From Candidatus Latescibacterota bacterium (lineage in GTDB: Bacteria > Latescibacterota > UBA2968 > UBA8231), in contig OZ242318.1 in the NCBI GenBank assembly GCA_965208105.1, positions 2,688,001 through 2,752,000 of the forward strand: DNA of 64,000 nt, read 5' to 3'. Each line of letters opens with the position of its first letter. The stretch's first letter is position 1. Under the pieces are notes generated by a model. That model searched no databases. It was not told the DNA's origin and saw only the letters and a list, made by a program, of their open reading frames with translations. The position numbers and the translations under genes are program-made. Positions 38,402 to 56,669 of the stretch are shown here, piece after piece.

Positions 38402-38480
38402 ATGACCGCCTTTCTTTGAACAATAGAAATTTTTTATTTATAATATAATAATTATTGATTAGATCAATTCATTGAATCCC
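38402..38480. promoter_or_regulatory. AT-rich divergent promoter region between lysR and ino1
   Basis: Extremely AT-rich stretch (ATAGAAATTTTTTATTTATAATATATAATTATTG) between divergent genes, as is typical of LysR operator regions. Confidence 0.55.
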
Positions 38481-38534
38481 CTATCTTCTTCTTTCGGATC
38501 CCGACAACCGACAATCGAAGGAGAGATGGTCATC

Positions 38535-39848
38535 ATGAACCAGTCTGTAAACATCGAAAAAGCAGAAGGGAAACTCGGCGTACTCATCCCCGGCATGGGG
38601 GCCGTGGCCACCACTTTCATCGCCGGCGTCGAAGCCATCAAGGCAGGCCTGGGCGATCCGATCGGCTCGCTGACCCAGATGGGTACCATCCGGCTCGGCA
38701 AGCGCACGGAAAAACGCACGCCATTGATCAAGGACTTTGTCCCCCTGGCGGGACTGGACGACCTGGTCTTCGGCGGCTGGGACGTTTTCGCCGACAATGC
38801 TTACGAGGCCGCCAGCCACGCCGGGGTCCTGAGACAGGAGACCCTGGACCAGCTCAGGGACCCGCTCAGCAGCGTCGAGCCCTGGCCGGCGGTCTTCAAC
38901 AGCCAGTACGTGCGCCGGCTGCAGGGCCCTCATGTCAAGAGCGCCTCTACAAAGTGGGATCTGGCCCAGGAAGTCCGCCAGGACATCCGGCGCTTCAAGG
39001 ACGACGAAGGTCTGGAGCGGATGGTGATGATCTGGTGCGGGAGCACCGAGGTATTCCTCTCCGAGACCGACGTACATGCCGGGGTCGAGGCTTTCGAGCA
39101 GGGACTGAAGAGGAACGACGAGAGCATCGCCCCCAGCATGATCTATGCCTACGCCGCCCTTTCAGAGGGCGTGCCATTTCTCAACGGCGCTCCCAATCTC
39201 TCCGTGGACCTTCCCGCCATGGTGGAACTGGCGCGGGAAACCGGCACTCCCATAGGGGGTAAGGACTTCAAGACGGGCCAGACCCTGATGAAGACTCTCC
39301 TGGCGCCGGGGTTCAAGGCCCGCATGCTGGGATTGCGAGGCTGGTTTTCAACCAATATCCTGGGCAACCGGGACGGGGAGATTCTGGACGATCCCGACTC
39401 GTTCAAAACAAAGGAAGAGAGCAAGCTCGGGGTGCTCGAGCACATCCTGCAGCCCTACCTCTATCCCGAGCTCTACAGCGACATCTATCACAAAGTCCGC
39501 ATCAACTACTACCCCCCCAGGGGCGACGAAAAGGAAGGCTGGGACAACATCGACATCTTCGGCTGGCTGGGATACCCCATGCAGATCAAGGTGGATTTTC
39601 TCTGCCGCGACAGCATTCTGGCCGCCCCCCTGGTCCTCGACCTGGTCCTCTTTGCCGATCTGGCACAGCGCTCCGGCCTGCGCGGCATCCAGGAATGGCT
39701 GTCCTTCTACTTCAAGAGCCCCATGGCCGCTCCGGAGCTCTACCCCGAGCACGATCTGTTCATCCAGTTGATGAAACTCAAGAACACGCTGCGCTATCTC
39801 CGCGGAGAAGACCTGATTACCCACCTGGGACAGGAGTACTACGACTGA
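38535..39848 (+). CDS. ino1: myo-inositol-1-phosphate synthase
   Basis: GMGAVATT, GKDFKTGQT, NILGNRDG and RDSILAAP motifs. Confidence 0.95.
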   Translation: MNQSVNIEKAEGKLGVLIPGMGAVATTFIAGVEAIKAGLGDPIGSLTQMGTIRLGKRTEKRTPLIKDFVPLAGLDDLVFGGWDVFADNAYEAASHAGVLRQETLDQLRDPLSSVEPWPAVFNSQYVRRLQGPHVKSASTKWDLAQEVRQDIRRFKDDEGLERMVMIWCGSTEVFLSETDVHAGVEAFEQGLKRNDESIAPSMIYAYAALSEGVPFLNGAPNLSVDLPAMVELARETGTPIGGKDFKTGQTLMKTLLAPGFKARMLGLRGWFSTNILGNRDGEILDDPDSFKTKEESKLGVLEHILQPYLYPELYSDIYHKVRINYYPPRGDEKEGWDNIDIFGWLGYPMQIKVDFLCRDSILAAPLVLDLVLFADLAQRSGLRGIQEWLSFYFKSPMAAPELYPEHDLFIQLMKLKNTLRYLRGEDLITHLGQEYYD

Positions 39849-40031
39849 CGGCGGCGCGGCGCATCTCTTCCGATTCCTGCCACGATTGTAGTGGCCAGTG
39901 GCCCCTCGGCTATTAGGTCACGATCCCGCTGCAATTGCCGGCCGGATCGCGCCCTTGTTCCCGCCCCGAACCCCGCTGAACCTTTGCCCGCCGACGTCCG
40001 CCTTATCTTATGGAGAGAGGGCAGACGACAC

Positions 40032-41444
40032 ATGACCCGTCCGAGTGACCAACTGTTGGCAGAGCAAGTGCGCCAGGGCAGCGAGGCCGCCTTCGTGCGG
40101 CTGATCCGGCGCCACGAGCGCACCCTGGCGCGGCTGATTCGGTACCGCACCGGTTTCGGCGACCAAGTGCAGGACGTGCTGCAGGAGACCCTGGTCCACG
40201 CCTGGAGCGGCCTGCGCCGGGACACCCCCCGCGACGTGAAGCCCTGGCTGCTGCAGGTGGCCCGCAACCGCTGCCGCGATTACTTCCGCTCGACCCAGCG
40301 CCGCGAGCTCTTCGTCGAGACCGAGGCTCTGGCGTCCATGGTTAACCGCTTTGGCGTGGCCCAGACACGGCGGCGGAAAGCCGCCGCGGCCGTCGTCGAG
40401 GCCATGGAGGAGGTCCCCGAGCGCGAGCGGGCCGCCCTGCGCGCCTTTTACCTGGACGGTCTGAGCATTGCCGAAATAGCCGCCCGCCACCGCTGTCCCG
40501 TCGGCACTGTCAAGCGCCGCCTGTCCCACGGGCGCGAGCGGATCCGCACGGTGCTGGGCGTCACCCCCAAGACGAGGAGCAAGATCATGAGCACTGACCG
40601 AAAGCGGCCCTTCCCCCCGTACCGGCCCGAAATACGGATTGAACCGAGCCGGGAGGAACCTTTCCGCCTTGACCTCAAAGAGATGGCCTGGTGGTTCGTC
40701 GTGCCGCAAGTGGGAGACCGCGTCCGCTGGGCCGTCTACGAACCCCTCAAAGAAGGCGACGCGCCCTGGAGGCTGTCTGAAACCGTCTCACTGGCGGCCC
40801 AACGACCTGCGGTCATCCACGGCCGTTCTTGCGTCGAAGTCGAGGTGGAGAACCTGTTTTTCTTCCGGAAGGGAATGATGTGCTACAGGAACAAGACACC
40901 CCCGGAAGAAGACCGTATGACCAAGGTGTGGGGCTGTCTGGCCGAGAACGCGGTGGAATGGATCGCCGTGGAATCGCTGCGCCCCGACGGCACGCGGGAA
41001 CTGACGACTTTCCTCGACGAAGGATTCCACGACGACTGGGACCGTTCGCCACGGCTGGTCGAGGACCGCGGCTGCCTGCGGTCACAGGCGGACGGCTCGT
41101 TCGCCAGACAGCCCGGCACCTCCCAAATTACCGGGGCCGGGGTGTTCGACGTGCAGATCGGCGGGCAGCACTTTACCTGCCTGCGCGTCTTTGACGTCGA
41201 GAAGGAGGCCACCGAGCGCGATGTCATGATCGAAGCCTATATCACCCGCGCCGGACGCACAGTGCTGGACCGCCGCTACAACGGCAACCGCTGGGCTAAA
41301 AGAGGCGCCCCACCGCACAATAGGGGCGAGGCCATGACCTGGGAAGAGGACCTGCCCGCCAACGACCGCATAGTCATCGACGGAGTGACCTACGTGCATT
41401 TCTACGACAAACTGACGGACCTGGCCTGCGGCATCGCCGGATGA
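40032..41444 (+). CDS. ECF sigma-70 factor with long C-terminal extension
   Basis: DVLQET, WLLQVARN and GLSIAEIA...PVGTVKRRL motifs, followed by about 280 extra residues. Confidence 0.85.
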   Translation: MTRPSDQLLAEQVRQGSEAAFVRLIRRHERTLARLIRYRTGFGDQVQDVLQETLVHAWSGLRRDTPRDVKPWLLQVARNRCRDYFRSTQRRELFVETEALASMVNRFGVAQTRRRKAAAAVVEAMEEVPERERAALRAFYLDGLSIAEIAARHRCPVGTVKRRLSHGRERIRTVLGVTPKTRSKIMSTDRKRPFPPYRPEIRIEPSREEPFRLDLKEMAWWFVVPQVGDRVRWAVYEPLKEGDAPWRLSETVSLAAQRPAVIHGRSCVEVEVENLFFFRKGMMCYRNKTPPEEDRMTKVWGCLAENAVEWIAVESLRPDGTRELTTFLDEGFHDDWDRSPRLVEDRGCLRSQADGSFARQPGTSQITGAGVFDVQIGGQHFTCLRVFDVEKEATERDVMIEAYITRAGRTVLDRRYNGNRWAKRGAPPHNRGEAMTWEEDLPANDRIVIDGVTYVHFYDKLTDLACGIAG

Positions 41445-41839
41445 AAAGGCAGGGCCTGGCCGGACTGGCATGGTGTATCCACCGCCTTCGTAGTTCGGTT
41501 ACATGGCCGGCCGACGGGTAGCCAGGAAATATGGTCATCCGAATCCCGGGAGAAAAACGGCCGGCAAAAACCGCTGACGCGCCCATTGCGCTTCATTTTT
41601 GCCCTGTCCTACTTGCCGCATGCGGCGGGATAAATCCAGGACCGCGGGCGCAATTTCCAGAGCTTGACAACTTCAACCTCGGCCGCGTCTTTTTGCTGGT
41701 GTCCGCGCCGATACCACCCTCTGTTCCGGTCGCCTGGGCGCTGGCCATTGCTCTTGTATGACGATCAGGTATCGAATATGACGATTGAGTGGCGCACAAG
41801 GGTCGGACGCCGCGGCTCTGCAACCCCGGGCTGGTCTGC

Positions 41840-42877
41840 ATGAAGTGGGTGTTGTGGATTGCGCTGCTCCTGGTCCTGGCGGTCCTGGCCGGACTGCCGA
41901 TCCGCATCCCCTACTCCATAGAGGCTCAGGGCAAGATCGTGCCGCAACGGGAGTGGACCCTGGTGCGCCAGCAGGAGGGCACCCTGGTGGCCACCCTGCG
42001 CAACAACCTGCGGGGAGCCGTGGAGCGCTACACAGTAATGGGATTCGACCGCGGGGACCGGGTGACTTTCCAGAAGAATCCGCTGGTGGTGGAAGGGGCC
42101 GCCATCGACCTGGGCGATACCCTGGGAGTCTATCGCTCCGAGGAGCTGCAGCGGCAGTGGATCCAGCTCAAAGGGGAGCTGGCCGACGAGCTGGCCCGGA
42201 CCGCGGTGGACGAGAGCGGCAGGAAGGAGCCCATCGTGTGGGCGGCTCGCATCGAGCTCGAGCGTAGTCGGACCCAACGAATTTGGCAAGAAAGGGAAGT
42301 CGATCGGCTCCGCAAGCTGTGGCAGCGCCAACTGATAAGCGACGCCGAACTGGATCAGGCGCGCAACGTCCTGGACCAGCAACGCCTGCAGGAAGAGTGG
42401 GCCGAGGCCCAGGTGCAGGTGGTCGAGAGCGGCTCGAAAGAGCAGGAGCTGGAGTGGCGGCGGAGCCGCATCCTGGCCATGCAGGAAGAGCTGGGCATTC
42501 TGGGCACGCGGCTCGAAAAAGCGGTGATCCGCGCTCCCATCGGCGGGCTGGTCTCCACCCTGGCCAGCGGAGACACCATCGCCGTGGTCTACGACACCAC
42601 CTCCTTCATCTCGCTGATGCCGGTGCCCTGGCAGGAGCGCGGCAACGTGGCGCGGCGGCAGCAGGTCGAGATTCCGCTGGCGGGCAAGGTGCTGCCGGCG
42701 ACGATCGTCCACCTGGGGCGGACGGCCCGCTCCGTCGGCGGCCAGCAGTACTTCGCCACCAAGGCCCTCATCAAGGGCGGCCGCGGCCTCCTGGCGCCCG
42801 GGCTGGTGGTCCCTTGCGCCATCGTCGCCGCGCCCCTGTCGCCGTGGCAATACCTCCTGCGTCTGCTCCGCTCCTGA
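41840..42877 (+). CDS. HlyD/membrane-fusion-protein-like periplasmic adaptor
   Basis: N-terminal TM, coiled coil with LISDAELDQA, and IRAPIGGLV lipoyl half-motif. Confidence 0.7.
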   Translation: MKWVLWIALLLVLAVLAGLPIRIPYSIEAQGKIVPQREWTLVRQQEGTLVATLRNNLRGAVERYTVMGFDRGDRVTFQKNPLVVEGAAIDLGDTLGVYRSEELQRQWIQLKGELADELARTAVDESGRKEPIVWAARIELERSRTQRIWQEREVDRLRKLWQRQLISDAELDQARNVLDQQRLQEEWAEAQVQVVESGSKEQELEWRRSRILAMQEELGILGTRLEKAVIRAPIGGLVSTLASGDTIAVVYDTTSFISLMPVPWQERGNVARRQQVEIPLAGKVLPATIVHLGRTARSVGGQQYFATKALIKGGRGLLAPGLVVPCAIVAAPLSPWQYLLRLLRS

Positions 42878-42905
42878 GCCTGCTGGAGGACGCGGAGCCG
42901 GAGCC

Positions 42906-43730
42906 ATGACCCGCCTCGAATACAAATACCTGGTGCCGGAGGAAGCTCTGGCGGACGTGCGCCGCCGCATCTCACCCCACGTCGAACCCGACAGTCACGC
43001 CAGCACTGGGGAGGGCTACACCGTGCGCAGCGTCTACTTCGACACCGCCGACCTGGACTTCTACTACCAGAAGGAATCCGGCATTCAGCACCGACGCAAA
43101 CTCCGGGTCAGAGGCTACGGCGACGGGTCCGGCGACGCCCTGGTTTTCCTCGAAATCAAGCGCAAAAACGACATGTCCATCTCCAAGGCCAGGGCCCCGT
43201 TCTACTACCGCCACTGGCCTTCACTGTTCGCCAGCGGAGACCTCACTCGTTTCGTGCACAACCCGGGGGCCGACGCCCAGGTCCTGCGCGACGGCCACAG
43301 CTTCTTTTTCCACCTGCACCGCTACTCCCTGATGCCCACGGTGCTGGTGTGCTACGAGCGCGAAGCCTTCTTCGGCAAGTACAAACCGGGGCTGCGGGTG
43401 ACCCTGGACAAGAATCTGCGCAGCGCCCCGTACCCGGGTCTGCAGGACCTTTTCGCCAAAAACCACCAGAAACGCTCCCTGGAGGGACACTTCATCATCG
43501 AGGTGAAGTTCAACGAGGGCATGCCCGTCTGGCTGAAAAGCCTGCAGGAGCACCACCGCCTGCAGCGCCAGGCCCTGTCCAAGTACGTGATTGCTCTCGA
43601 CGAACAGGGCATACCGCGGCGCTCGGGAACATTCTCCACCTGGGCGCACCATCGCCACGGCAACGATGCGGGCAGCAGGAAAATCGGATCTTCTGCGACT
43701 GCCGGGCACCATTGGGGTGAGAGCGGATGA
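42906..43730 (+). CDS. VTC (polyphosphate polymerase-like, CYTH fold) domain protein
   Basis: RLEYKY, VRSVYFDT, RRKLRVRGY, LEIKRK, YEREAF, RVTLD, IIEVKF and SKY motifs. Confidence 0.9.
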   Translation: MTRLEYKYLVPEEALADVRRRISPHVEPDSHASTGEGYTVRSVYFDTADLDFYYQKESGIQHRRKLRVRGYGDGSGDALVFLEIKRKNDMSISKARAPFYYRHWPSLFASGDLTRFVHNPGADAQVLRDGHSFFFHLHRYSLMPTVLVCYEREAFFGKYKPGLRVTLDKNLRSAPYPGLQDLFAKNHQKRSLEGHFIIEVKFNEGMPVWLKSLQEHHRLQRQALSKYVIALDEQGIPRRSGTFSTWAHHRHGNDAGSRKIGSSATAGHHWGESG

Positions 43731-44407
43731 ACGGCTTCCCCGAATTCCAGTCCCTGCTTTCCTTCGATCTCACCCCGGGGCAGGTCGTACGCCATCTTGC
43801 GGTGGCTTTTCTCTGCGGGTTGCTGGTCTCCCGGTTCTACGCCTGGATCACCCGGCGCCCCGTCCACTCCCGCACCTTCACCAGCTCGCTGATCGCCCTG
43901 ACCATGGTCACCGCCATCGTCATCATGGTCATCGGCAACAACCTGGCGCGCGCCTTCGGCCTCGTGGGCGCCATGTCCATCATCCGCTTTCGCACCGCGG
44001 TCAAGGACATTCAGGACATCGTCTTCATCTTTTTCAGCCTGACCGTGGGCATGGCCGCGGGGGTGGGAATGTACGCCGTCGCTCTTCTCGGCAGCGGCCT
44101 CATCGGATCGATCATGCTCGGTCTGTCGCGGCTCGGCAGCTATGCCCAGCAAAAACGGGAGTACATGGTGCTCATGAGCTTCGAGCCCGACGGCAGCGAC
44201 GAGGCGCCCTACCTGCCTGTGCTCAAGGACCACTGCCGGCGCCATCAACTGGTGAACGTCAAATCGCAGGAGGAGAGCGACACCCTGGAACTGTCTTATT
44301 ACGTCCACCTGAAGGACGAGGACCGCAGCGACGATCTCATTCGGGAGCTGCGCGGTCTCCAGGGCATGAAGAACGCCAGCCTGTTTTTTGACGAAGAGTA
44401 CTACTGA
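43727..44407 (+). CDS. DUF4956-family membrane protein
   Basis: IGNNLARAFGLVGAMSIIRFRTAVKD motif; ATGA overlap with the VTC gene. Confidence 0.9.
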   Translation: MNGFPEFQSLLSFDLTPGQVVRHLAVAFLCGLLVSRFYAWITRRPVHSRTFTSSLIALTMVTAIVIMVIGNNLARAFGLVGAMSIIRFRTAVKDIQDIVFIFFSLTVGMAAGVGMYAVALLGSGLIGSIMLGLSRLGSYAQQKREYMVLMSFEPDGSDEAPYLPVLKDHCRRHQLVNVKSQEESDTLELSYYVHLKDEDRSDDLIRELRGLQGMKNASLFFDEEYY

Positions 44408-44556
44408 CGGTAAGTGCCGCAATCGAGAGGCCCCTGCGCTCCCGCATGCCGCCGCTTCGCCTGTCCCTTCCCGCGGAAATACCCTCCGAATGCTCCCGCC
44501 CCCTGGCTCTCCGCCGCACTCGGCCTCGCCTGCAGAACAACAATATCAACTGTCTG

Positions 44557-46245
44557 CTAGCGGACTACAACCAACTTGCGCGCCAGCGAACCCATCCCTG
44601 TCCGCAAGCGGTAGATGTAGACTCCCGAAGAAACCTCGGCGCCCTTCTCGTCGCGGCCGTACCAGCGCACCGTGTGCGTTCCCCTGGAATGGAACCCCTT
44701 GGCCAGGGTGGCGATTTTCTGGCCGGCCAGGTTGTAGAGGGACAGGTCCGCGCGAGCCTCCCGGGGCAGAGTGAAACGGATGGCGACGCTGCCGTTGAAG
44801 GGGTTGGGAAAGCCGGCGGACAAAGCGGGTAGAGCGGGATGGCCGGGGCTGGACGAGGAGACCGCCGTGTCGGGCCCGCGGACCAGCACCAGGTCCTCCG
44901 GGGCGATGTCGGCCACCCGGCGCGCCTGCTCGATGAAGTGGTCGTCGAGCCAGTCCAGGCGTTGTCCCAACCACTTTTTGAGATAGGCCACCTCCTCGGC
45001 GTGGGTGCGGCCAATGAAGTCGTTGGGCCAGACGTAGCGTCCCAGGATGGGCCAGCGCTCGAAGTTGCGCTCCTGGGCCTCCTGCAGAACCGCCGCCAGG
45101 CTGTCGATGTGGGAATCCAGTTCGTCCCCGCTCAAAACCCCTCTGCGGTGGGCATGCCAGCGATTCGCCAGGGTGTCGATGAAAGCCTCGTCCTGGAGCA
45201 GGCGGCGCCACCAGAACCAGAAGGGAGTTGAAATCCAGGTAGCCCCATTGGCGATTTGCAGGCGGTGGGTGGACGGCCGTTGCAGCTCCAGGCTGGGATG
45301 GACGTTGTAGTTGACGTTGCCCAGGGCAATGTTGAAATCCCACACCGGCCCCATGGTCAGCTTGCCTCCGGCGCTGTCCCTGTCCTTGTGCATGAAAAGG
45401 CTCAGGCGGTAGGCGTCGACGTTCTTGACTACTTCGTTGACGATGAGATAATCGGCAAAAGAGGCCAGGTCTAGATAGCGGCCATAGTCTCTCCGCGATC
45501 CTGCCAGGACCGCCTCCAAACTGTCGGTGTAGGCGCGAATATAGGCTTCCTGCTCGGGATTTATATTTTCCCCCGTGGGGTAGTAATACAGGTAAAAAAG
45601 GCGATTCCCCTTGAAGGCGTAGGCCGAGTACCATCCGGGGTCAACGCCTTCGATATAGCGGTCGACCCGGATGATATAGCCCCCGGTCACGTCGTCTCCG
45701 TCCACTTCGTCGGGGTCGAGGCGGGCGATGGCGACGCGGTCACCGTCGCGCTTGATTTTTTCAAGAAGCACATAGACGCCGAGATAGTCGCCGTCGATGA
45801 CCACTTCGCAGAAGCGGCTGCGGCTGGCATAGGCCCCCATCCGGCGCGCCATCCAGTACACAAGGGCGTTGCGAAGGAGTGATTTGTCGCTGTACGGTCC
45901 GTAGAGAATCCAGTCGTTTTCCTGGGGCAGCCCCAAAAGGGAGACGTTGCGGTTTTCGCCGTCAGCCTGCCGGGTTTCCAGCGCATAGGATTTCTTTGGG
46001 AAACTCTGGGTGCTGGCCCCCCTGACCTCAATGGCGATGGGTCCCTCGCCTCCGTCATAGGGGTCGCCCAGCCTGTTGCGCTGCCCCGGACCATTGTCGA
46101 TCACCCCCATCCAGGCGTCGATCTTGGGCTCGTCGGGAATGGACCGGCCGCCGGTGTCGATGACCACGATGGGCAGGTTGGAGGAGGTGAGGTCGGCCTC
46201 GGCGGCCGCGGGCAGGAGGACGATCAGCAAAAAGATCAAGGGCAT
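44557..46245 (-). CDS. secreted CotH kinase-family protein with C-terminal FlgD-Ig sorting domain
   Basis: EVRGASTQSFPKKSY, DKSLLRN, YLGVY and GPVWDFN motifs; tail FPNPFN...GVYIYRL. Confidence 0.9.
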   Translation of the reverse strand: MPLIFLLIVLLPAAAEADLTSSNLPIVVIDTGGRSIPDEPKIDAWMGVIDNGPGQRNRLGDPYDGGEGPIAIEVRGASTQSFPKKSYALETRQADGENRNVSLLGLPQENDWILYGPYSDKSLLRNALVYWMARRMGAYASRSRFCEVVIDGDYLGVYVLLEKIKRDGDRVAIARLDPDEVDGDDVTGGYIIRVDRYIEGVDPGWYSAYAFKGNRLFYLYYYPTGENINPEQEAYIRAYTDSLEAVLAGSRRDYGRYLDLASFADYLIVNEVVKNVDAYRLSLFMHKDRDSAGGKLTMGPVWDFNIALGNVNYNVHPSLELQRPSTHRLQIANGATWISTPFWFWWRRLLQDEAFIDTLANRWHAHRRGVLSGDELDSHIDSLAAVLQEAQERNFERWPILGRYVWPNDFIGRTHAEEVAYLKKWLGQRLDWLDDHFIEQARRVADIAPEDLVLVRGPDTAVSSSSPGHPALPALSAGFPNPFNGSVAIRFTLPREARADLSLYNLAGQKIATLAKGFHSRGTHTVRWYGRDEKGAEVSSGVYIYRLRTGMGSLARKLVVVR

Positions 46246-46264
46246 GGGACCCGGGGCATTCTCC

Positions 46265-49200
46265 TTACTTCACCAGCACCATTTTGCGCGTCTGCTGCAG
46301 CCTGCGGTGGCTCCCGTGGTCGAGGCGGAGCCGATAGAAGTAGACGCCGCCAGGCCAATGGGAAGCGTTCAGGACAAAGCGGTGGAATCCGGCTCCCTGT
46401 GGCGTGTTCTCGTGCAGATCGGCCACTCTCTGGCCCAGCAGGTTGAAGACGCTCAGGCTGACCCGGCCTGCGCGGGGCAAGATGTATTCGATGCGGGTGC
46501 TGGGATTGAAGGGATTGGGATAGTTCTGCTCCAGCACAAAGCGGCACGGCAGCCCGGGGCCGGCGGCCGGCTCGAGTACCGAATTTGCCGCCACGATGAC
46601 GGTGGAATCTGCCCGCCCCAGGGGCACCCCGCCCACGCCGGCGCTGAAGCCGGGGGAATCGGGCAGCAGGAAATAGCGGGCGTCGAAGCGGGGGATCCCC
46701 GCGATGTTGCCGTCGCGCCCGTCGAACTCGGGATCGTTGGTGAGCGAATGGGAAATATCCAAGGCCCCCTCCAGGGGGCCGTCGATAAGGTGGACGAAGT
46801 TGAGAACATTGTCCCCGTTGCCGTAGAGCACGCTGTTGGTCACGGTCATTTTGTCGCGATAGGTCCATCCGTCCCAGTTATAATCGTCGCCGATGCGTAG
46901 TCCCACGTTGTTGCCCACGGCCACCGAGTGGTCGATGAATACGTGCGGGCCGTCGTCGTACTCGTATTCGGTGTATCCGGCTTCGAAGCCCTGGTCGTTG
47001 TTGAGGGCAACGGTGTTGAAAATCCGCAAGGTATCGCCACCGGAGGCGGCAATGCCCTCGTGGGCAAAGTCCTCGATCCAGCAGTTGGACACCTGCAGGC
47101 GGGCGCCGTGGTGGTCGATGCCGTCGTCCTTGCCGGTGACGAAGTAGCAGTTGTCGATCACCGAGTAGCGGGGGAAGCGGGCGTTGACGTAGTCGACGTG
47201 CAACCCGTCCGTGTCGATGTCCTCCTCGTAGATCCCGTCGTCGTTGGGCAGGTTCATGAAGTGGCTGTCGCGGTAGGACAGGAGAGTGAGGACGAATTCG
47301 CCACCGTGGTGGACGAAGGAGGAGACGGAGTTGGAAATGGAGGCCACGGAGTTGGAGCAGCCGAAGACCTTGCCCGGCGAGTTGAGGAAGAAGCACTGGT
47401 CGAACTCGAAGGTGGAATTGAGCTTGCCGAAAAAGATGTGCTGACGGCCGGTGTGCCACATTCCACGGGTATGGTCGCCGCCGCCGTTGAGCACCATGCA
47501 GTAGCGGAAGTCGGCCTCCGCTCCGGTGAACTCCATGCCTCCCCAGGGCTCGGGCCAGTCGGCGGAGGTGAGGACCACCGGCGCCGCGGCAGTGCCTCTG
47601 GCAGAGACCCGGCCGCGGACGAAGAAGTTGACCCGCGCTCCCACGGCCACCCAGGCGCCCGCCTCCAGAATCAGGTGGGTGTTATCAGGCACGGTGATAT
47701 CGCCGGTGACCAGGTGGTCGGCCCCCGCGTCCCAGACCACCTCTCCGACGGGCAGTCTGCCGGCGTGAACCTTCACCGGACGCGCGGAGACGGCGATATC
47801 CCTGGAGGCGGAGGCCACTGCTTCGTTTCCCACCTCCAGTACGAAACCCCTTTCTGCCATCAGTCCCACGCCGGTGCCGGCGCCGCGCTTGATGGCGATG
47901 GCGGTATCTGCCCTTACCCCGGAAAAACGCACCTGCATGGGGCTTTGCTCGGTGGGCTCAATGCCTCCGTCCGGGCCGCGCAGGCGCACCACATAGGGAA
48001 ATTGCCGGCCGGCGGGGACGCTTTGCGGAGCAACGAGTTCCGCGCTGATGCCGGCCGCCACCGCGGGAAGGAAAAGGGCCTTCACCTTCAGGTCTGCCGC
48101 CGGGGTCAAGGTGATGGCGGGCTGGTCCGGCAACTGTGGGTCGGACCAGCCGGCGAAGCGGTGGCCCGGCGCCGGCCGTGCCTGCAACGGCAGGGGGACC
48201 TGGAGAAAGTAGGTCCCCGACCAGGGATAGGCGCTGGGTACGACCGTGTTCACCTGCACCTCTCCGGGGCCTTCCACTTCCACGGTCAACAGGGCTTGTC
48301 CGTCGAGCTCGAAGAATTCCTCCATTTGGCGACGCACCACGACAGGCCGACGGTGGACGAAGTCCTCCATGAGCCCCACGTTTCGTTCCCAGGTTGCCAC
48401 GCTGCTGTCCCAGCGCTCGACCTCCGCGGGAATTTCCGCGGCTATGGTCTGCGCCAGCGAATCGATCAAGACTTGCACCTGGGGTCCGGAAAAGGTCGTG
48501 TTGAATAGGTCGGCAAAGCGGTTGATGAACCTGGTCCGGAAGGACTGGTTGGCCAGCAGCCTCTTCGTGAGCAGGCGGTCCAACTCGCGGTTGAGAGGAT
48601 TGAACAGGGTGGTGAAGCCGTTCCAGTCGGCATTGTCGAATGTCCGGTCCGCGTCCCAAATAGTCCACTGCCACGGGCGGTCCGGATCCTTTTCCCTGAA
48701 GGCGTACACCCCGTAGGCCCAATTGCGGTAGTGGATGGCGTGGACGAGGGCCTGCAGGTCGATGAAATTGTCCAGATCGAGGTAGCAGCTGGCCGATGCC
48801 AGCAGATCATCGTCCACCAGGCTGTGGTCGGCGAAAAACCGCAGCATTGCGTCCCATTTGTCCTTGTCGCCGTGGACCAGTTCGGTCGAGTCCCAGCGGG
48901 TGCGCACCAGGTCGATGGCCTCGTAGCCCAGATGGTCCTGGACGAAATCCTCGTCCACGTTCTGCTTGAGGTCGTAAATTCCCGTGAACTCCGCGTTGAG
49001 GTAGAGCACGGCAAAACGGCTCCGCGGAGTCAGGCCGCCGGTCCGGGACCACAGCTCTGAGGCCAGCGGATCGTGCAGCAGGGTCCCCCCGCGGTTGGTG
49101 AATCTCTCGGTGGGCTCCAGGCTGTCGTCGTAGCCCGAGCGCAGAACCAGGCGGTTGAACCGGGTTACCCAGTCCCCGGGATGTAGAGGGTACTCCAGGT

Positions 49201-50200
49201 CGTCGGCCCCGTAACCGCCGCGAAAATAGGCGCGGAAGGATTTCTTGCGGTATTCCCTGGGCCCGGTGTTGCCCTGCAGGCGGAGACCGGCCGGCACCTG
49301 GAAACCGAGTCCTCCTTCCTCGAAAAAGGCCAGTTCGACAAAGCGCTCCCAGGCCCGTCCGGGCCGGTCGTTCACCAGGATTCCGCGTTCGGGGTCGTGC
49401 AGATTGGCCGGATCGGTGAGAACGGCCATGACCGGCAGGGCGTGCTCGGCGCCGACAAGGAATATCCGCGCCACCACGGTGCTGGGCAGGGCCCCGGCGG
49501 CAAAGGAACGTGCCTTGAAAACCACCGTCCGGGTTATGGAGACCGGTCCGCTGTAGAGGGGAGAAGAGGCGGTGGGATCGGAGCCGTCCAGGGTATAGCG
49601 CACTTGATCGCCGGAGTCTGCCGGCTGCGCCGAGACCGCCGCTGCATCGTCGAACATGCCGCTGGCCGGGGCTATTGCGGGGGGACGCACAAAAGTGCTG
49701 AAGCCACGGCTGTTCGCCGCCCCGGGAGTGGGCTCGGGCATGTAGCCCCGGGAGATATCATTGGAAGGACGGCCATAGGAGACATCCCGCAGTTGCTGCG
49801 GAAAAGAGAGGCTGTCCACCAGGCTCGTCCCGTCAGCGGCGATGAGGACGACCTGCTCGCCGTCTTTGCTGAGGCGAAAGGGGAGATGGTCGGCTCCGGC
49901 CTCGGGCTCGCCGTCGGCGTAGAGCAGGCGGTAACCCCCCGCCGGTACGGTGGTGCGGTGGGCCTGGCCCGCGGGGATCTGCCAGAGGGCTTTGTCGGGC
50001 CAGTCGTCGACAATGAAGTATCCGGCCAGATCCACCTCGGCCTCGCCGCGGTTGTGGATCTCGATCCAATCCTCGTATTGGCCGCGGGGGCCGGCGTGAG
50101 CGGTCACGTTCGAAGCCATGATCTCGTTGAGGGACAGGCTCGACCGGGCCGCACCGGGAAGCAGCAGGAAGAACAGGATGAAGGTGTTTCGCCCGTACAT
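46265..50200 (-). CDS. large secreted CotH kinase (lamin-tail domain, FN3-associated domain, CotH, beta-helix, sorting domain)
   Basis: LNEIMASN..DWIEIHN, YTLDGSDP, RLQG..KKSF and WDAD motifs; GKDDGID beta-helix; NYPNPFNPST tail. Confidence 0.88.
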   Translation of the reverse strand: MYGRNTFILFFLLLPGAARSSLSLNEIMASNVTAHAGPRGQYEDWIEIHNRGEAEVDLAGYFIVDDWPDKALWQIPAGQAHRTTVPAGGYRLLYADGEPEAGADHLPFRLSKDGEQVVLIAADGTSLVDSLSFPQQLRDVSYGRPSNDISRGYMPEPTPGAANSRGFSTFVRPPAIAPASGMFDDAAAVSAQPADSGDQVRYTLDGSDPTASSPLYSGPVSITRTVVFKARSFAAGALPSTVVARIFLVGAEHALPVMAVLTDPANLHDPERGILVNDRPGRAWERFVELAFFEEGGLGFQVPAGLRLQGNTGPREYRKKSFRAYFRGGYGADDLEYPLHPGDWVTRFNRLVLRSGYDDSLEPTERFTNRGGTLLHDPLASELWSRTGGLTPRSRFAVLYLNAEFTGIYDLKQNVDEDFVQDHLGYEAIDLVRTRWDSTELVHGDKDKWDAMLRFFADHSLVDDDLLASASCYLDLDNFIDLQALVHAIHYRNWAYGVYAFREKDPDRPWQWTIWDADRTFDNADWNGFTTLFNPLNRELDRLLTKRLLANQSFRTRFINRFADLFNTTFSGPQVQVLIDSLAQTIAAEIPAEVERWDSSVATWERNVGLMEDFVHRRPVVVRRQMEEFFELDGQALLTVEVEGPGEVQVNTVVPSAYPWSGTYFLQVPLPLQARPAPGHRFAGWSDPQLPDQPAITLTPAADLKVKALFLPAVAAGISAELVAPQSVPAGRQFPYVVRLRGPDGGIEPTEQSPMQVRFSGVRADTAIAIKRGAGTGVGLMAERGFVLEVGNEAVASASRDIAVSARPVKVHAGRLPVGEVVWDAGADHLVTGDITVPDNTHLILEAGAWVAVGARVNFFVRGRVSARGTAAAPVVLTSADWPEPWGGMEFTGAEADFRYCMVLNGGGDHTRGMWHTGRQHIFFGKLNSTFEFDQCFFLNSPGKVFGCSNSVASISNSVSSFVHHGGEFVLTLLSYRDSHFMNLPNDDGIYEEDIDTDGLHVDYVNARFPRYSVIDNCYFVTGKDDGIDHHGARLQVSNCWIEDFAHEGIAASGGDTLRIFNTVALNNDQGFEAGYTEYEYDDGPHVFIDHSVAVGNNVGLRIGDDYNWDGWTYRDKMTVTNSVLYGNGDNVLNFVHLIDGPLEGALDISHSLTNDPEFDGRDGNIAGIPRFDARYFLLPDSPGFSAGVGGVPLGRADSTVIVAANSVLEPAAGPGLPCRFVLEQNYPNPFNPSTRIEYILPRAGRVSLSVFNLLGQRVADLHENTPQGAGFHRFVLNASHWPGGVYFYRLRLDHGSHRRLQQTRKMVLVK

Positions 50201-50399
50201 TTTGGCCTGGACTTCGAAGCGGCAGCCGCTTCCCGGCGGAAATTTCAGGACCGCTTTTCAGGGAGAAAAGGAGATTTTTCGTACTTCGAGTGAAGCGGGC
50301 ACAGCTCTTCCCGCCGGAGTGGCGGCTCACCTTCGAACAACTGCCACGAACCTAGCAACAACAAACATGGCAGTCAAGAAAGGAAGCACATGGCATGGC

Positions 50400-50489
50400 T
50401 CATAACGTCTTGCCGATTTGCCAACCGCCAAGCGGTTGCTGAAGGCCAAGGCGCGATCGGCGCCGCAGCGCAACCCCGATGTGTTACAT
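50400..50489 (-). repeat. attC-like site 1
   Basis: + strand TCATAAC...GTTGCTGAAGGCCAAGGCGCGA...GTTACAT. Confidence 0.8.
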
Positions 50490-50509
50490 GATATGCTCAA
50501 CCAATTCAA

Positions 50510-50860
50510 TCAATTGTCTTCATCTACGGCGAGATCTACAAGGAGTTCCAACTCTGTCGTCGATCCACGCACCCAGGTATCCTTCTTGAACTGTTGATGA
50601 AAGGCATCAATCTCATGCTTTGACTGCTTGACCACATGGCGGGCGCGCTGCAGGTCTTCGGACCGCATGTACGAGAGGAGATATACCTCGTCATTTAACG
50701 TCAGCAAGAACCAGGATTCGACTTTCACTCCTTCTTCGCGTAATGTAGCCAACGCTTCGTCCTTGCGCTCGTTTATGGTGCTTGCCCATGCTACCACCCC
50801 ATCCTCAGAATTCTCCTTAAGCCTTCTCAATGTTGCCTTTACGTCCACGTCAACCTCCAT
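50510..50860 (-). CDS. cassette: DUF6176-like protein
   Basis: EALATLREEGVKVESWF...YLLSYMR...IDAFHQQFK. Confidence 0.65.
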   Translation of the reverse strand: MEVDVDVKATLRRLKENSEDGVVAWASTINERKDEALATLREEGVKVESWFLLTLNDEVYLLSYMRSEDLQRARHVVKQSKHEIDAFHQQFKKDTWVRGSTTELELLVDLAVDEDN

Positions 50861-50874
50861 GTTTTCGGCATTTC

Positions 50875-50970
50875 AAGTAACGTTCCCGCCGCTTGTGAAG
50901 CTGCCGGAGCGAAGCGGAGGCAGTTTGGTCCGGAGTGCCGCAGGCACGGAGCACAAGCGGCGTGTTACAC
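50875..50970 (-). repeat. attC-like site 2
   Basis: + strand AAGTAAC GTTCC CGCCGCTTGTG...CACAAGCGGCG T GTTACAC. Confidence 0.85.
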
Positions 50971-51085
50971 GTTGCCGTGGCCGGGGGAGGGAAGGTTCTG
51001 CCCAAACAGTAAGGGCGCTGCCTCTATCAAAACAAGAAGACTTCCATAGAGATTCTTGCCAAATGAGCCATTCAGCGGGCACCTT

Positions 51086-51980
51086 TTATCCTATCTGCTG
51101 ACGCACTGCAGAGATGATGTTTTTCATCAACATGACGTTGGTCATTGGGCCAGTGCCTCCAGGTACGGGAGTGATCATGCCTGCAACCTGCACAGCCTCA
51201 TCGAAGTCCACATCGCCGCACATCTGACCGTCCACGAAATTGACACCGAAATCGATCACCACTGCGCCAGACTTGATCCACCCACCCTTGATCATCCTGG
51301 CTTGACCTACGGCCGCACACAGGATATCGGCCGTGCTGCACACCGTAGCCAGGTCCTCAGTACGTGAATGGCATATTGTCACTGTGGCGTTTTCTCTTAA
51401 AAGCAGAAGAGCCATCGGCTTGCCCACGATGTTCGAGCGACCTACAACTACCACCAGCTTACCTTGGAGTTCCACATCGTACCGCTTAAGGATCTCTAAC
51501 CCTCCGGCGGGCGTGGCCGGTACAATAAATGGTCCGACCATAGGTGGCCGACCCACAGGCGCCACTTGGGCCAGTCCTCCAGTGTTCTCTGGATGCACAC
51601 CGTCTACGTCCTTGCCTGGAGACAACGCATCTTTGACAGCTGCCTCGTCGATTCCCTTGGGCAGGGGCTCTTGAATCAAAATGCCATGTACGGCCGGGTC
51701 GGTGTTTAACTTGGCAACCACGGTCACAATGTCATCTTGGGTAGAAGTATCTGGTAAGGCGTGGAGTTGGAAACCCAATCCTTGATTGCCAAAAGACTTC
51801 CCCAGAACATTGGCATAGCTGACCGAGGGCATAGCTGACCGAGGCCCGATCCTCCCCGGCACGCAAGACCGCCAGCGTTGGCTTATCTCCGTGCTGCTCT
51901 GCGAAGGCGGAAACCTCCGCTTCGATCTCCCTACGCATTGATTTTGCCAGCTTGCGGCCATCCAGGATCTTTGCAGCCAT
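51086..51980 (-). pseudogene. folD: cassette: bifunctional methylene-THF dehydrogenase/cyclohydrolase, frameshifted
   Basis: MAAKILDGRKLA..SVSY in one frame; KDVDG, GRSNIVGKP and TPVPGGTGPMT in another; 16-bp tandem duplication at 51812-51843. Confidence 0.9.
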
Positions 51981-52035
51981 CTTAACCCTCTCCTTCCCCC
52001 CTCTCAGGTTAATCTCTGTAAACGTTTTGGCAGCC

Positions 52036-52668
52036 CTACAGTTTGCTTACCACGAACTCGTAAACCTCGTCGCTCAGAGCTGGTTTGCTTTCCAGCAAAG
52101 CGTCCAGCTTGGTCTGATTCTCCTTGACGAAAGCTTCGTCGTTGATCCAGCTCAGGTTGATGAGAACATTAAGAGCAGCACTGCGCAGCCCAATCTCGGC
52201 CATCAACACGGCTACCCCAGCGTCGCTGACTACGTTCGTGTTGCCCTTCTCGGCCGCGGGACGACACAAGTCCATCACCCGGATGCATGCCTCAGCTACC
52301 TGCATTGGAACGTCAGCAGCAGCCTTTAGGGCTTCCTCCATCGCCGCAGCACGGGCTGCCTTCTGCTCATTGGTTTCGCCTGGCATCTTCATCGCTTGGG
52401 AGACTTGGGTATAGGCATGGATGTCGGCCTCCAGCAGATCTGTGAGCAGACGGCGTAGTTCTTCCGACTGCTCCAGCAGGCCTGCGATGTCCTCTTGGAC
52501 ACCGGCGTACTGCTTCTTACCGGTGGTCAGATTGCAGACCATGCTGATCAGGGCAGCGCCCAGAGCTCCTGATAGAGCAGCCACGCTGCCCCCACCTGGA
52601 GTTGGTGCGGAACTTGACAGTTCATCCAGGAAGATCCTCACGGGCTTGTCGATCAATCTTTCAGTCAT
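52036..52668 (-). CDS. fchA: cassette: formimidoyl-THF cyclodeaminase / methenyl-THF cyclohydrolase (FTCD_C family)
   Basis: LSSSAPTPGGGSVAAL and GNTNVVSDAGVA...ALNVLINL motifs. Confidence 0.88.
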   Translation of the reverse strand: MTERLIDKPVRIFLDELSSSAPTPGGGSVAALSGALGAALISMVCNLTTGKKQYAGVQEDIAGLLEQSEELRRLLTDLLEADIHAYTQVSQAMKMPGETNEQKAARAAAMEEALKAAADVPMQVAEACIRVMDLCRPAAEKGNTNVVSDAGVAVLMAEIGLRSAALNVLINLSWINDEAFVKENQTKLDALLESKPALSDEVYEFVVSKL

Positions 52669-52732
52669 TGTGTACTCCTTCTGGCCACCTCATCAGTCTA
52701 TGATCATCGAGGGGGTAGTAGGCCACGGTTTC

Positions 52733-52822
52733 GTATAACGTCTCACAATTCACGAGGTCGCGGATGCGACTTGCCGAAGGCCAAGTGCCGAATGGCGCGC
52801 AGGGTGAATTGCTGTGTTATCG
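52733..52822 (-). repeat. attC-like site 3
   Basis: + strand GTATAAC..CAATTCAC...GTGAATTG..GTTATCG. Confidence 0.82.
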
Positions 52823-52890
52823 GTTGTGGATATCTGAGTACATGGTTGATACCTCTTGGCCACTGTGACATGTGGACCGCAGCGATGGCA

Positions 52891-53415
52891 CTACTTAGAT
52901 TCGGCGTCTTCAATGAGACGAAAGCCCATCTTAAGGTTCATGGATTGGGACGCACAATTCTTCGAACTAAAGCCAGTACGTATAAACCTATAACCCTGTG
53001 AGAGCGCGTAGCTTATACCCTTCCACTTCAACGTAGTGGCGATACCTTGCCGCCTATTTTGGGGTCGTACCCCGGTCATGCACTGACAGATTTCGCATGA
53101 AATCCCCTGTGATTTGATCATGTAGCTGTATCCAACATAGTTACTCTCACTTTTTGCTATGAAAATGGTGTTCCAATCATCAAATCGTTCCAGGTATTCT
53201 TCTAAGGTCCAATCAGGTTTCACATGGACGACCAGAGCAAGATCGTAGAGACAGAGAAGATGATCAGGATTCCTGCTAGCCTCCTCGGCCAAAGAGGTAA
53301 ATGAAATACCTTGGGCAAGAACTCGTTGGATAGCCGATTCGCCTTGTGACAGATCGACCGTACCCAGGTCAAGCACAGCCTCGAGTTTTGTGGGCTCAGA
53401 GTTGGTAGTGGTCAT
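52891..53415 (-). CDS. cassette: GNAT acetyltransferase
   Basis: TGVRPQNRRQGIATTLK motif A; N...SMNLKMGF. Confidence 0.85.
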   Translation of the reverse strand: MTTTNSEPTKLEAVLDLGTVDLSQGESAIQRVLAQGISFTSLAEEASRNPDHLLCLYDLALVVHVKPDWTLEEYLERFDDWNTIFIAKSESNYVGYSYMIKSQGISCEICQCMTGVRPQNRRQGIATTLKWKGISYALSQGYRFIRTGFSSKNCASQSMNLKMGFRLIEDAESK

Positions 53416-53445
53416 ATGCTATGGTCCTCTATCCATATCCATTGC

Positions 53446-53513
53446 CGATAACGTTTTCCGTGGCCTCGAACCGCGAAGCGGTTGCGCGAAGGCCGGGCAC
53501 GGACGTGTTATGT
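53446..53513 (-). repeat. attC-like site 4 (short)
   Basis: + strand CGATAAC...CCGCGAAGCGG...GGGCACGGACGTGTTATGT; the TAA stop of the upstream ORF lies within the core. Confidence 0.85.
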
Positions 53514-54089
53514 GACGTGGGACAACACTTTTCGCGATTTCAATGCTGCAAGTACTTGGGCCATGAGCTCCTCCAAGCTACACCACCCATCCAAAATGAG
53601 ATCGCTGTTGGCCTTGTCTCGGTAGGTATCCAAGTACGGATACCGAGCTCGCTCCAAATAGTTCGACATGTCGTCACGCAGTTTCCTCAGTTTCTCGTTG
53701 GCGGATTGGCTGCTGCTGGAACCGTAGTCCCGCAAGATGCGCCGAGCCATAGCGACGTCAAGAGGCGTGTCGACAAATACCGCTAAATCAATGAGATCAC
53801 GGAAACGAGTGTGACCGCGGCCGAATGGAAAATCCAGAACAATCTGTTTCGCAATTCCTCTTTGCACCTCAGCGACAACTGCTGCGTGCATGCCAGGACA
53901 GTCGAACTCTTCGACGTCACCACCACGTCGGCCCCACTCGTAAAAATCGTCTGGATACACGTTGGATTCGTCGAACTCATCAAACTGAAAGAGAACCGAG
54001 TCCGGCAATTCATCGTGGAGGGCAATCGACAGAGCCGTTTTGCCACCACCAGAGACAGAGTTAACCGAGATAATAAATGGCTTCGTCAT
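53508..54089 (-). CDS. cassette: P-loop nucleoside/uridine-kinase-like protein
   Basis: SVSGGGKT Walker A; FVDTPLDVAMARRILRD. Confidence 0.8.
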   Translation of the reverse strand: MTKPFIISVNSVSGGGKTALSIALHDELPDSVLFQFDEFDESNVYPDDFYEWGRRGGDVEEFDCPGMHAAVVAEVQRGIAKQIVLDFPFGRGHTRFRDLIDLAVFVDTPLDVAMARRILRDYGSSSSQSANEKLRKLRDDMSNYLERARYPYLDTYRDKANSDLILDGWCSLEELMAQVLAALKSRKVLSHVT

Positions 54090-54125
54090 CGGCGGTCTAG
54101 ACAGGAAGTATTCTCAACTCATGTC

Positions 54126-54210
54126 ACATAATTTTTTCGCCGTGCCCGAACCGCGAATGCGGCTGCGCGAAGGCGCGTCAGCGCCGAAGCCGGGCATGGA
54201 CGTGTTAACT
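54126..54210 (-). repeat. attC-like site 5 (core AAC changed to AAT)
   Basis: Body matches sites 7, 10 and 13 but begins ACATAAT TTTTTC; SDR stop codon lies in the other core. Confidence 0.8.
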
Positions 54211-55131
54211 GCCGTTGCTAAGGTCCATCGACATAGCTCGGCGGATTGCAGTGGATCGAGCTGTATGACTACCACGTCCCAATTCCGTTTGGTGGAATGG
54301 TTTGGGACGAGATCCATCTATGTCTACAAAACCGTATTCCTTGGCTAATTCACCAACAATCAAGATCTGTCCGGTTTTGTTCAGGATCTCGGGATCAGCT
54401 GCCAATGCACGTATCGCTCGCCCCGTGTACTGTGGCGACTCTGTAAACAGCAACTTTTCTTTAAAGATGTACTTCATCACACCCTCGGTTCGCACATAGC
54501 CAGGCCAAAGCGAAACGCATGCTACACCATACTCCTTAAACGTAACTGCCATCTCAATCGCCAATTTATCTGTTGCCAACTTTGAAGCGAGATAGTAGAC
54601 GTCGCCCGGGCCTTCTTGTGAACTATAATTGGAAATATTGACGATCAATCCACTACCTGTATGTATCATGAGCGGTGCGGCATAGGTACTGGCGACGTAA
54701 TGTGAGCGAAGTCCTACATCGTGCGTGGCATCCCATTGTTCGATAGGGTGCTCCCAGAATGGACCTGAGTAGTACACGTCTCTGTGGGCATTCTCATACC
54801 CCGACCAAACGTTGTTCACGAGGATGTCTATATGACCTTGCTCGTCCTCAATCCGTTTGAATACGGCCTTCACCTGATCGTCTTTTCGGTGGTCGCACCG
54901 GCAGGGAATCCCCTTTCCTCCCAAACGCGATACTTCACGGGCCGTGGCGGTCAGAGACCCTTCCACAGGAACGGTCTGGTCGCCTGATTTCATGGTGCGA
55001 CCGGTGATATAGACGGTGGCTCCGGCTTCCCCCAAGGCCAAGGCCACTCCTTTGCCAACGCCTCGACTGGCCCCGGTCACTACGGCGATCTTGCCTGCTA
55101 GTGGCAGGCCGCCTGTCTGACTTTTCGGCAC
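54205..55131 (-). CDS. cassette: short-chain dehydrogenase (DHRS1-like)
   Basis: VTGASRGVGKG, ILVNNVW, YLASK and SLWPGYVRTE motifs. Confidence 0.9.
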   Translation of the reverse strand: MPKSQTGGLPLAGKIAVVTGASRGVGKGVALALGEAGATVYITGRTMKSGDQTVPVEGSLTATAREVSRLGGKGIPCRCDHRKDDQVKAVFKRIEDEQGHIDILVNNVWSGYENAHRDVYYSGPFWEHPIEQWDATHDVGLRSHYVASTYAAPLMIHTGSGLIVNISNYSSQEGPGDVYYLASKLATDKLAIEMAVTFKEYGVACVSLWPGYVRTEGVMKYIFKEKLLFTESPQYTGRAIRALAADPEILNKTGQILIVGELAKEYGFVDIDGSRPKPFHQTELGRGSHTARSTAIRRAMSMDLSNGS

Positions 55132-55207
55132 GGCTTTGCCTCCTGCTTATCAGCGTAGTGAAGTGAGAGGAGGAAGCAATAAGATTGTTTTCTCCCCATG
55201 CAATGGC

Positions 55208-55348
55208 CGTTAACGTTGTGCCGGTTTGCGAACCTGGCGCGTCCCGAAGGGCTGGCGCGAGCTTTGCCCTGCAAAGCGAGTGACAGAAGCCAGGTTGCCG
55301 AAGGCCAAGACGGCGAAGGCCGCCGCAGCGCGAAACGTGCTGTCACCC
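55208..55348 (-). repeat. attC-like site 6 (long; core GTT changed to GTC)
   Basis: + strand CGTTAAC GTTGTGCCGGTTTGCG...multiple hairpins...CGAAACGTGCT GTCACCC. Confidence 0.75.
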
Positions 55349-55382
55349 GCTGTGCGGATAGGCTCTCCTACCAAGGTCCGGT

Positions 55383-55859: not shown

Positions 55860-55913
55860 CTAGTGGCTCGTTCGGAATCTCAGGAATGTTTCGATTTCCA
55901 CAGAACGCATTGC

Positions 55914-55995
55914 GGGCAACGTTCTCGCCGTGCCCGAACCGCGAATGCGGTTGCGCGAAGGGCATAGCCCGAAGCCGGGCATGGACGTGTTATAG
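55914..55995 (-). repeat. attC-like site 7
   Basis: + strand GGGCAAC GTTCTCGCCGTGCCCG...CGGGCATGGACGT GTTATAG. Confidence 0.88.
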
Positions 55996-56039
55996 GAAAT
56001 GCCAGCTGATGCGCCGAAGTAATTCTCAGAGGATTAAGC

Positions 56040-56612: not shown

Positions 56613-56669
56613 GAGATCCCCTCAGTCAGGAGGTTTTAAAAGATCGCATATGTCCAAAATTTGGCTTTC

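Follow-up and report, generated by a model that had tools for sequence, protein, structure and literature searches.

A conserved adaptor–VTC–DUF4956 operon beside secreted CotH genes, a candidate polyphosphate synthase-exporter in Latescibacterota

The window analyzed here is a 64,000-nt stretch of a Candidatus Latescibacterota genome (contig OZ242318.1, positions 2,688,001 to 2,752,000 of the forward strand). It carries an operon encoding a membrane-fusion-protein-like adaptor, a stand-alone VTC tunnel domain and a DUF4956 membrane protein, which converges on two genes for secreted CotH proteins. Considering sequence, structural models and analogy to known systems together, we put the chance that this operon encodes an envelope-spanning polyphosphate (polyP) synthase-exporter at a little below even. 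The adaptor–VTC–DUF4956 arrangement itself is far from chance, because it recurs in relatives of the bacterium and across phyla.

According to the list of open reading frames (ORFs), positions 41789–50200 of the window hold five genes in two convergent units, three on the + strand and two on the – strand:

41789–42877, + strand: adaptor gene (362 aa), membrane-fusion-protein-like, first gene of the operon
42906–43730, + strand: VTC gene (274 aa), VTC PF09359 (E 3e-41, 141.8 bits), stand-alone tunnel domain
43727–44407, + strand: DUF4956 gene (226 aa), Pfam DUF4956 (E 1.5e-14, 54.5 bits)
44557–46245, – strand: CotH1 gene (562 aa), CotH (E 8e-62), type IX secretion (T9SS) type A sorting domain
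~44947–46032 and ~44566–44811, – strand: CotH and T9SS sorting domains of CotH1, respectively (Pfam, NCBIfam)
46265–50200, – strand: CotH2 gene (1311 aa), multidomain, CotH (E 1e-29), T9SS sorting domain
~49802–50152, 49472–49669 and 48341–49285, – strand: lamin-tail, CHB_HEX_C and CotH domains of CotH2 (Pfam)
46883–47206 and 46310–46522, – strand: beta-helix and T9SS sorting domains of CotH2 (Pfam, NCBIfam)

The family assignments that a first-pass annotation had made for these five genes (HlyD-like adaptor, VTC, DUF4956 and two CotH) hold in the ORF list and in Pfam and NCBIfam. So does its claim of translational coupling between VTC and DUF4956, as the stop codon of the former and the start codon of the latter overlap in an ATGA that can be read directly in the sequence. 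Between the adaptor and VTC genes lie 28 nt, and a GGAGGA motif precedes the VTC ATG. The longest adaptor ORF opens with a GTG at 41789, and an in-frame ATG at 41840, where the first-pass annotation began the gene, would give a product starting MKW that soon enters a membrane helix. On the opposite strand, CotH1 and CotH2 are separated by 19 nt, and 150 nt lie between the convergent ends of the two units. A promoter and terminator scan of the locus returned nothing exceeding shuffled expectation. The genome is a single 4.85-Mb contig with one VTC gene and two CotH genes, both of the latter at this locus.

Pfam VTC covers residues 3–231 of the VTC protein at 141.8 bits (cut-off 23). While a PDB search with the single sequence found little (E 0.026), a profile built from 35 homologs (A1) matched Vtc4 (3g3q, E 6e-15), Vtc2 (3e-8) and Vtc3 (1e-6) and no protein other than Vtc. 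With Vtc4 residues numbered as in 8i6v, K7, R67, R69, K85, Y150, R152 and E199 align with Vtc4 K200, R264, R266, K281, Y359, R361 and E426, and R3, K94, R164 and K201 with the exit residues R196, K294, R373 and K428; all eleven are invariant across the 35 homologs. According to the accessible part of a preprint (bioRxiv 2023.01.27.525886), those Vtc4 residues bind triphosphate and Mn, their mutation lowers polyP, and K458 alone sets catalytic Vtc4 apart from Vtc2 and Vtc3. An invariant S225-K226-Y227 lies within about one residue of the spacing of S457/K458 after the K428 equivalent, an estimate, as the alignment ends earlier. The catalytic-domain label of the first-pass annotation is supported by the aligned tunnel residues, and we regard the protein as a putative polyP polymerase. 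No longer VTC forms, that is, natural fusions, were found, which is weak evidence.

An AlphaFold2 (AF2) model of the DUF4956 protein (pLDDT 87.2) comprises five membrane helices followed by a C-terminal beta-alpha-beta-beta-alpha-beta domain. The latter matches ACT-like folds (Z 8–10), including the C-terminal domains of MgtC (7qa5, Z 8.4; 2lqj, Z 8.2). Sequence similarity to MgtC is below the cut-offs of both Pfam MgtC (20.6 vs 31.4; E 6e-4) and NCBIfam MgtC/SapB (36.7 vs 214; E 3e-9), and the DUF4956 family has an invariant core of its own, GNNLARAFGLVGAMSIIRFRT. An IRFR motif is likewise invariant, and the third helix with its flanks is the best-conserved stretch. By the positive-inside rule, three invariant residues (R87, R89 and K93) face the cytoplasm together with the ACT-like domain, on the side where the VTC protein would be. 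On this model, the DUF4956 protein is a putative inner-membrane channel partner.

The adaptor family had no usable Pfam match, its representative sequence giving none, and the window adaptor itself matched HlyD_3 weakly (22.3 bits) and NCBIfam HlyD PRK03598 with E 8e-13. A profile of 41 members (A3) matched MacA (3fpp, E 3.6e-10) and also ZneB, AcrA, EmrA and HlyD. The AF2 model of the adaptor (pLDDT 90.5) shows a membrane helix (residues 13–35), two hairpin helices (118–179 and 185–243; roughly 60 residues per arm) and beta domains, and Foldseek placed MacA and EmrA at the top (MacA: E 2e-13, probability 1.00). As modeled, the adaptor has a membrane-fusion-protein fold, of the MacA/EmrA type and with membrane anchor, alpha-hairpin, lipoyl and beta-barrel domains, in agreement with its initial description as HlyD-like.

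To describe the surroundings of the operon in other genomes, we used the 80 loci nearest to the window's VTC that were returned when 185,579 species genomes were scanned with alignment A2. These span Latescibacterota, Bacteroidota, Ignavibacteriota, Calditrichota, Zixibacteria, Rhodothermales, Chloroflexota, Planctomycetota and others. In profile searches of their ORFs, a DUF4956 homolog lies directly downstream of VTC at 78 loci and an adaptor homolog directly upstream at 69; the adaptor is no loose neighbor but a part of the operon as conserved as DUF4956. A CotH gene is found within 10 kb of VTC at 48 loci (22 of the 33 with full flanks) and within 2 kb at 38, in many phyla and often on the same strand. 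The co-occurrence of the families, proposed by the first-pass annotation as a check, is strong and conserved. Beyond DUF4956, adaptor and CotH, every other family from all-against-all clustering occurs at 12 loci at most, the minor ones being unrelated genes. No ABC, RND or MFS pump family and no glycan family is conserved across the 80 loci; one of them (L075) has MacB-type genes upstream. Because no such pump is conserved, DUF4956 is the only candidate inner-membrane partner of the adaptor.

Most upstream neighbors of the adaptor gene (n = 65) are 80–350 nt away, hence the adaptor opens the operon. Of these neighbors 53 were scanned, 12 short ORFs being left out, and they include six CotH genes, two PHO4 phosphate transporters and one TolC-type outer-membrane channel (OEP) gene. 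Phosphate-related genes were seen just upstream of the adaptor at six loci (L022, L029, L032, L066, L078 and L085), namely PHO4 at L022 and L029, a type I phosphodiesterase at L032 and a CYTH protein at L066; phytase-like beta-propellers also occur upstream, and this family is present at 7 of the 80 loci. The adaptor is missing from all seven Chloroflexota loci, six of them with at least 1.9 kb of upstream sequence, whereas nearly all other loci have it. Provided that Chloroflexota are single-membraned, this absence fits a periplasm-spanning role of the adaptor.

The linkage also holds among relatives. Of 41 related genomes, 15 gave a VTC match, 19 a CotH match and 24 a DUF4956 match; in the window's bacterial family, VTC and DUF4956 occur in exactly the same 13 genomes. 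Of 19 VTC places outside the window's genome, 18 have DUF4956 no more than 6 kb away and 13 have CotH no more than 10 kb away on that contig, several of the places without a partner being on short contigs. Strong adaptor matches in the 41 genomes were on the VTC contig in eight of eight cases, seven of them within 700 nt. Among 14 control genomes, all three with VTC (Bacteroides thetaiotaomicron, Corynebacterium glutamicum and Methanosarcina acetivorans) also carry DUF4956 and CotH, while Bacillus subtilis has CotH only. Two copies in relatives are interrupted: a CotH gene beside VTC with three in-frame TGA stops (G016:C1:3212287-3213205) and a VTC gene split across two frames (G008:C1:6638049-6638745), both possible decayed copies of the cassette. 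A second DUF4956-type gene, with an open frame of 333 aa (G000:C1:3609093-3609386), is distant from every VTC gene, and the same longer, VTC-independent DUF4956 type was seen in 8 of 12 sister-family genomes without a VTC match.

Turning to the CotH proteins, Pfam CotH matches CotH1 with 210 bits and CotH2 with 104 bits, each over the full profile length. A PDB search with the single CotH1 sequence gave nothing, and a profile of 31 CotH domains matched CotH of Bacillus cereus (5jd9, E 6e-50). Both proteins begin with a hydrophobic, signal-like segment and end in the sorting domain TIGR04183 above its cut-off of 23 (CotH1 35.7 bits, CotH2 32.6 bits), as the first-pass annotation had said; the genome encodes the sortase PorU (632 bits, cut-off 420) and has dozens of other sorting-domain matches, scored against that region of the PorU model. 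Judged from these signals, CotH1 and CotH2 are type IX secretion cargo. By a crude heuristic, a hydrophobic N-terminus is present in 65 of 69 CotH ORFs near VTC with an intact N-terminus, compared to 1 of 80 VTC proteins.

The earlier description of the pair as two secreted kinases stands for secretion and may fit CotH1, and it overstates CotH2. The B. subtilis CotH mutants D228Q and D251A are inactive, as far as the accessible source text states. A conserved Asp pair in 5jd9 shows the same 23-residue spacing, on which the equivalence to D228 and D251 rests. CotH1 keeps both residues (D277 and D303), with Ser replacing Asn five residues past the catalytic Asp, as in the CotH1 subfamily. CotH2 retains the metal-binding D516; because N493 replaces the catalytic Asp, it is probably a pseudokinase. 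Its ortholog at locus L015 has the same Asn substitution. Across 35 CotH domains compared, the first Asp is present in 30 and the second in all.

Our model builds on what was observed, namely the order of the genes, their families and folds, the conserved residues and the recurring synteny; for it we infer polymerase activity, channel function, physical contacts and a link to CotH chemistry. The cytoplasmic VTC tunnel domain would polymerize polyP from the gamma-phosphate of ATP, like yeast Vtc4, and the chain would thread through oligomeric DUF4956, a five-helix protein whose cytoplasmic ACT-like domain and ring of invariant arginines could serve as the enzyme's docking site and take up the chain. 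From its anchor in the inner membrane, the adaptor may form a periplasmic duct that leads the polymer to an outer-membrane channel with its gene at another locus, or sets it free in the periplasm. At the cell surface, the type IX-secreted CotH proteins probably act on the operon's product or together with it, CotH1 as a possible kinase and CotH2 as a probable pseudokinase or scaffold. A bolder version, in which polyP exported by VTC, DUF4956 and adaptor would offset the lack of ATP outside the cell and serve the secreted CotH kinases as phosphoryl donor, appears quite unlikely to us; in the same scenario, CotH may instead attach polyP, modifying surface proteins or glycans, with CotH2-like pseudokinases as polyP-binding scaffolds. 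The original interpretation as a VTC-like system for polyP export or surface phosphorylation is partly supported.

Several observations weigh against a synthase-exporter. A profile of the C-terminal part of VTC gave chance matches only and no Vtc4, leaving the counterpart of K458 unaligned. E5 in the first strand is retained where Vtc4 has Thr198, and a Glu at this position is reminiscent of triphosphatase-type tunnel enzymes. The helical part of the DUF4956 protein has no sequence or fold relative in the PDB, so that calling this five-helix bundle a channel is a guess. Three longer DUF4956 forms, apparent fusions of VTC and DUF4956, were read as frameshift or gene-call artefacts: either the invariant SKY or LEVKF motifs are missing from them or the frame continues into a downstream signal peptide. 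The window holds no outer-membrane channel gene and the genome about nine TolC-type (OEP) genes; the sole such gene among the scanned neighbors (1 of 53) overlaps the adaptor gene at L017 in Planctomycetota. Within the same bacterial family, some VTC–DUF4956 cassettes lack this adaptor. The counts from the 80 loci, which were picked for their closeness to the window's VTC, apply to one subfamily, and the genome already encodes PPK1. Moreover, our literature search found no biochemical study of the CotH–VTC–DUF4956 module and no mention of the adaptor.

An alternative that we consider unlikely is that, instead of exporting free polyP, the module makes or modifies a surface polymer that bears phosphate. 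VTC and DUF4956 would then deliver phosphoryl groups to the other side of the membrane, the adaptor would keep the complex in place at the envelope, and CotH-type enzymes would phosphorylate a surface glycan or protein or attach chains of phosphate to it. This possibility draws on the same set of genes in Gram-positive Pel operons, where the available text of Whitfield 2020 (PMC7112168) counts cotH, DUF4956, DUF4832 and a gene for a polyP polymerase among the accessory genes; CotH–VTC–DUF4956 linkage is also reported, in sources accessible in part, for Firmicutes and Actinobacteria. In Streptococcus intermedius, according to the accessible sections of a 2025 paper (SIR_1592-1594, PMC12345266), mutants of CotH and of the DUF4956-like protein (MgtC/ACT-type) show reduced or lost Pel-dependent aggregation, a phenotype that, within what those sections report, shows the accessory set to act outside the cytoplasm. 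The first-pass statement that the module lacks functional characterization is accordingly right about biochemistry and falls short in that the set is already in print for Pel loci, with a mutant phenotype. Clostridium perfringens NELoc-2, in which VTC, a membrane protein and CotH lie beside glycosyltransferase-type genes, and the carbohydrate-type modules of CotH2 (CHB_HEX_C and beta-helix) point the same way.

The same sections of the 2025 paper report no occurrence of the three-gene synteny beyond Pel loci, a restriction that the window and the 80 loci contradict. No Pel family was detected among the scanned window ORFs, some of which have no Pfam match, and the operon is not contiguous with pelDEADAFG. 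A surface polymer is disfavored by this lack of a Pel or polysaccharide gene beside the module, the closest glycosyltransferase in the window being ~25 kb distant, and by the lack of a conserved glycan family across the 80 loci. Furthermore, no CotH gene is present within 10 kb at 32 of these loci (11 of the 33 with full flanks), so the core works without CotH.

Alternatively, VTC and DUF4956 could regulate phosphate or cation balance locally at the membrane without any export, the tunnel enzyme making or cleaving short polyP or triphosphate in the cytoplasm and thereby tuning the MgtC-like protein. The MgtC architecture and ACT-like domain of DUF4956, the phosphate-related genes adjoining some loci and the retained E5 speak for this proposal. 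It leaves unexplained the conserved periplasmic adaptor with its absence from Chloroflexota and the enrichment of exported CotH, and the VTC profile matches Vtc proteins and no other tunnel enzymes; we judge it distinctly improbable.

That the CotH genes are independent surface-protein neighbors sharing no function with the operon is very unlikely: they do form a separate convergent transcription unit in the window, CotH occurs without a found VTC in G010, G015, G018, G024, G029 and B. subtilis, VTC without a found CotH in G014, and the 32 loci just mentioned fit, but CotH proximity within 2 kb at 38 loci of many phyla, often on the same strand, its presence at 13 of 19 VTC places in relatives and in all three VTC-bearing controls, and the linkage reported in part-accessible sources for Firmicutes and Actinobacteria argue otherwise.

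Read as a synthase-exporter, the operon resembles several known systems in part. The yeast VTC complex (Vtc4/Vtc3/Vtc1; 3g3q, 7ytj, 8i6v) has the same catalytic tunnel domain as the window VTC and, in its accessible descriptions, the same proposed logic of synthesis coupled to passage through a membrane channel. Unlike yeast Vtc4, the 274-aa window protein lacks, by Pfam, an SPX domain and the fused C-terminal VTC membrane domain of three helices. The window has instead a separate, unrelated five-helix DUF4956 partner and a periplasmic adaptor, and the polymer would be sent out of the cell and not into a vacuole. The Gram-positive Pel accessory set comprises the same three linked families with a secreted CotH; unlike those loci, the window has neither Pel genes nor DUF4832 and adds the adaptor and the type IX sorting signals. 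With MacA and EmrA of the MacAB–TolC and EmrAB–TolC pumps, the window adaptor shares the fold, the N-terminal membrane helix and the long alpha-hairpin, but there is no ABC, MFS or RND pump and no linked TolC-type gene, VTC and DUF4956 standing in the pump's place.

MgtC/SapB proteins have five membrane helices and a cytoplasmic ACT-like domain as DUF4956 does, from which the latter differs by falling below both family cut-offs and by its own invariant core. The Bacillus CotH spore-coat kinase (5jd9) shares the CotH domain, and CotH1 keeps both catalytic aspartates. Unlike Bacillus CotH, however, the window proteins would take the Sec and type IX routes to a site without ATP and carry extra surface domains, and CotH2 has an Asn at the catalytic Asp position.

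The genes flanking the module are of housekeeping type (myo-inositol-1-phosphate synthase (MIPS), ECF sigma factor, FolD and others). Just 5′ of the operon, an ECF-type sigma factor with a C-terminal extension of ~300 aa is encoded at 39891–41444 (+ strand), adjoined by the myo-inositol-1-phosphate synthase gene at 38472–39848 (+ strand); a homolog of the sigma factor is conserved near only 5 of the 80 related loci, for which reason it was not counted in the module. Directly past CotH2, the G+C content drops from ~0.62–0.65 to 0.52–0.56 and stays low until the end of the window (50200–64000). This segment contains many small – strand genes, some matching family models only partly (e.g. His_Phos_1 positions 23–81 of 194 at 58027–58350, and APH positions 100–215 of 239 at 60385–61044), which may be decayed genes or an island. 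Elsewhere in the window, a 687-aa BNR/sortilin-repeat protein with a FlgD_ig-type C-terminus (8445–10508, – strand) is probably further type IX cargo.

Public sequencing runs containing at least half of the sampled words of 41789–46245 include several that are labelled as sponge metagenomes and come from four or more coded studies; none of the public runs listed as containing this segment is an RNA run. Sponge microbiomes are reported, in sources accessible in part, to store polyP, which together with these runs makes for a possible habitat link. The source of extracellular polyP is itself at issue: a 2026 preprint describes PPK-independent extracellular polyP in B. cereus, with the pathway unnamed and no VTC4 homolog there, and the present cassette is hence not the answer in that species.

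What the window adds to the CotH–VTC–DUF4956 synteny known from Gram-positive Pel loci is the adaptor. The operon is small and readily tractable in Escherichia coli. To our knowledge, bacterial polyP is credited to PPK1 and PPK2 only, and we know of no sporulation in the phylum of the window bacterium. If the proposed reading is true, the importance of the same genes in Pel-dependent aggregation could be explained, a role would be suggested for secreted CotH kinases in non-sporulating bacteria, and the yeast-type polymerase with its export duct would constitute a third bacterial route to polyP and the first dedicated exporter of this polymer.

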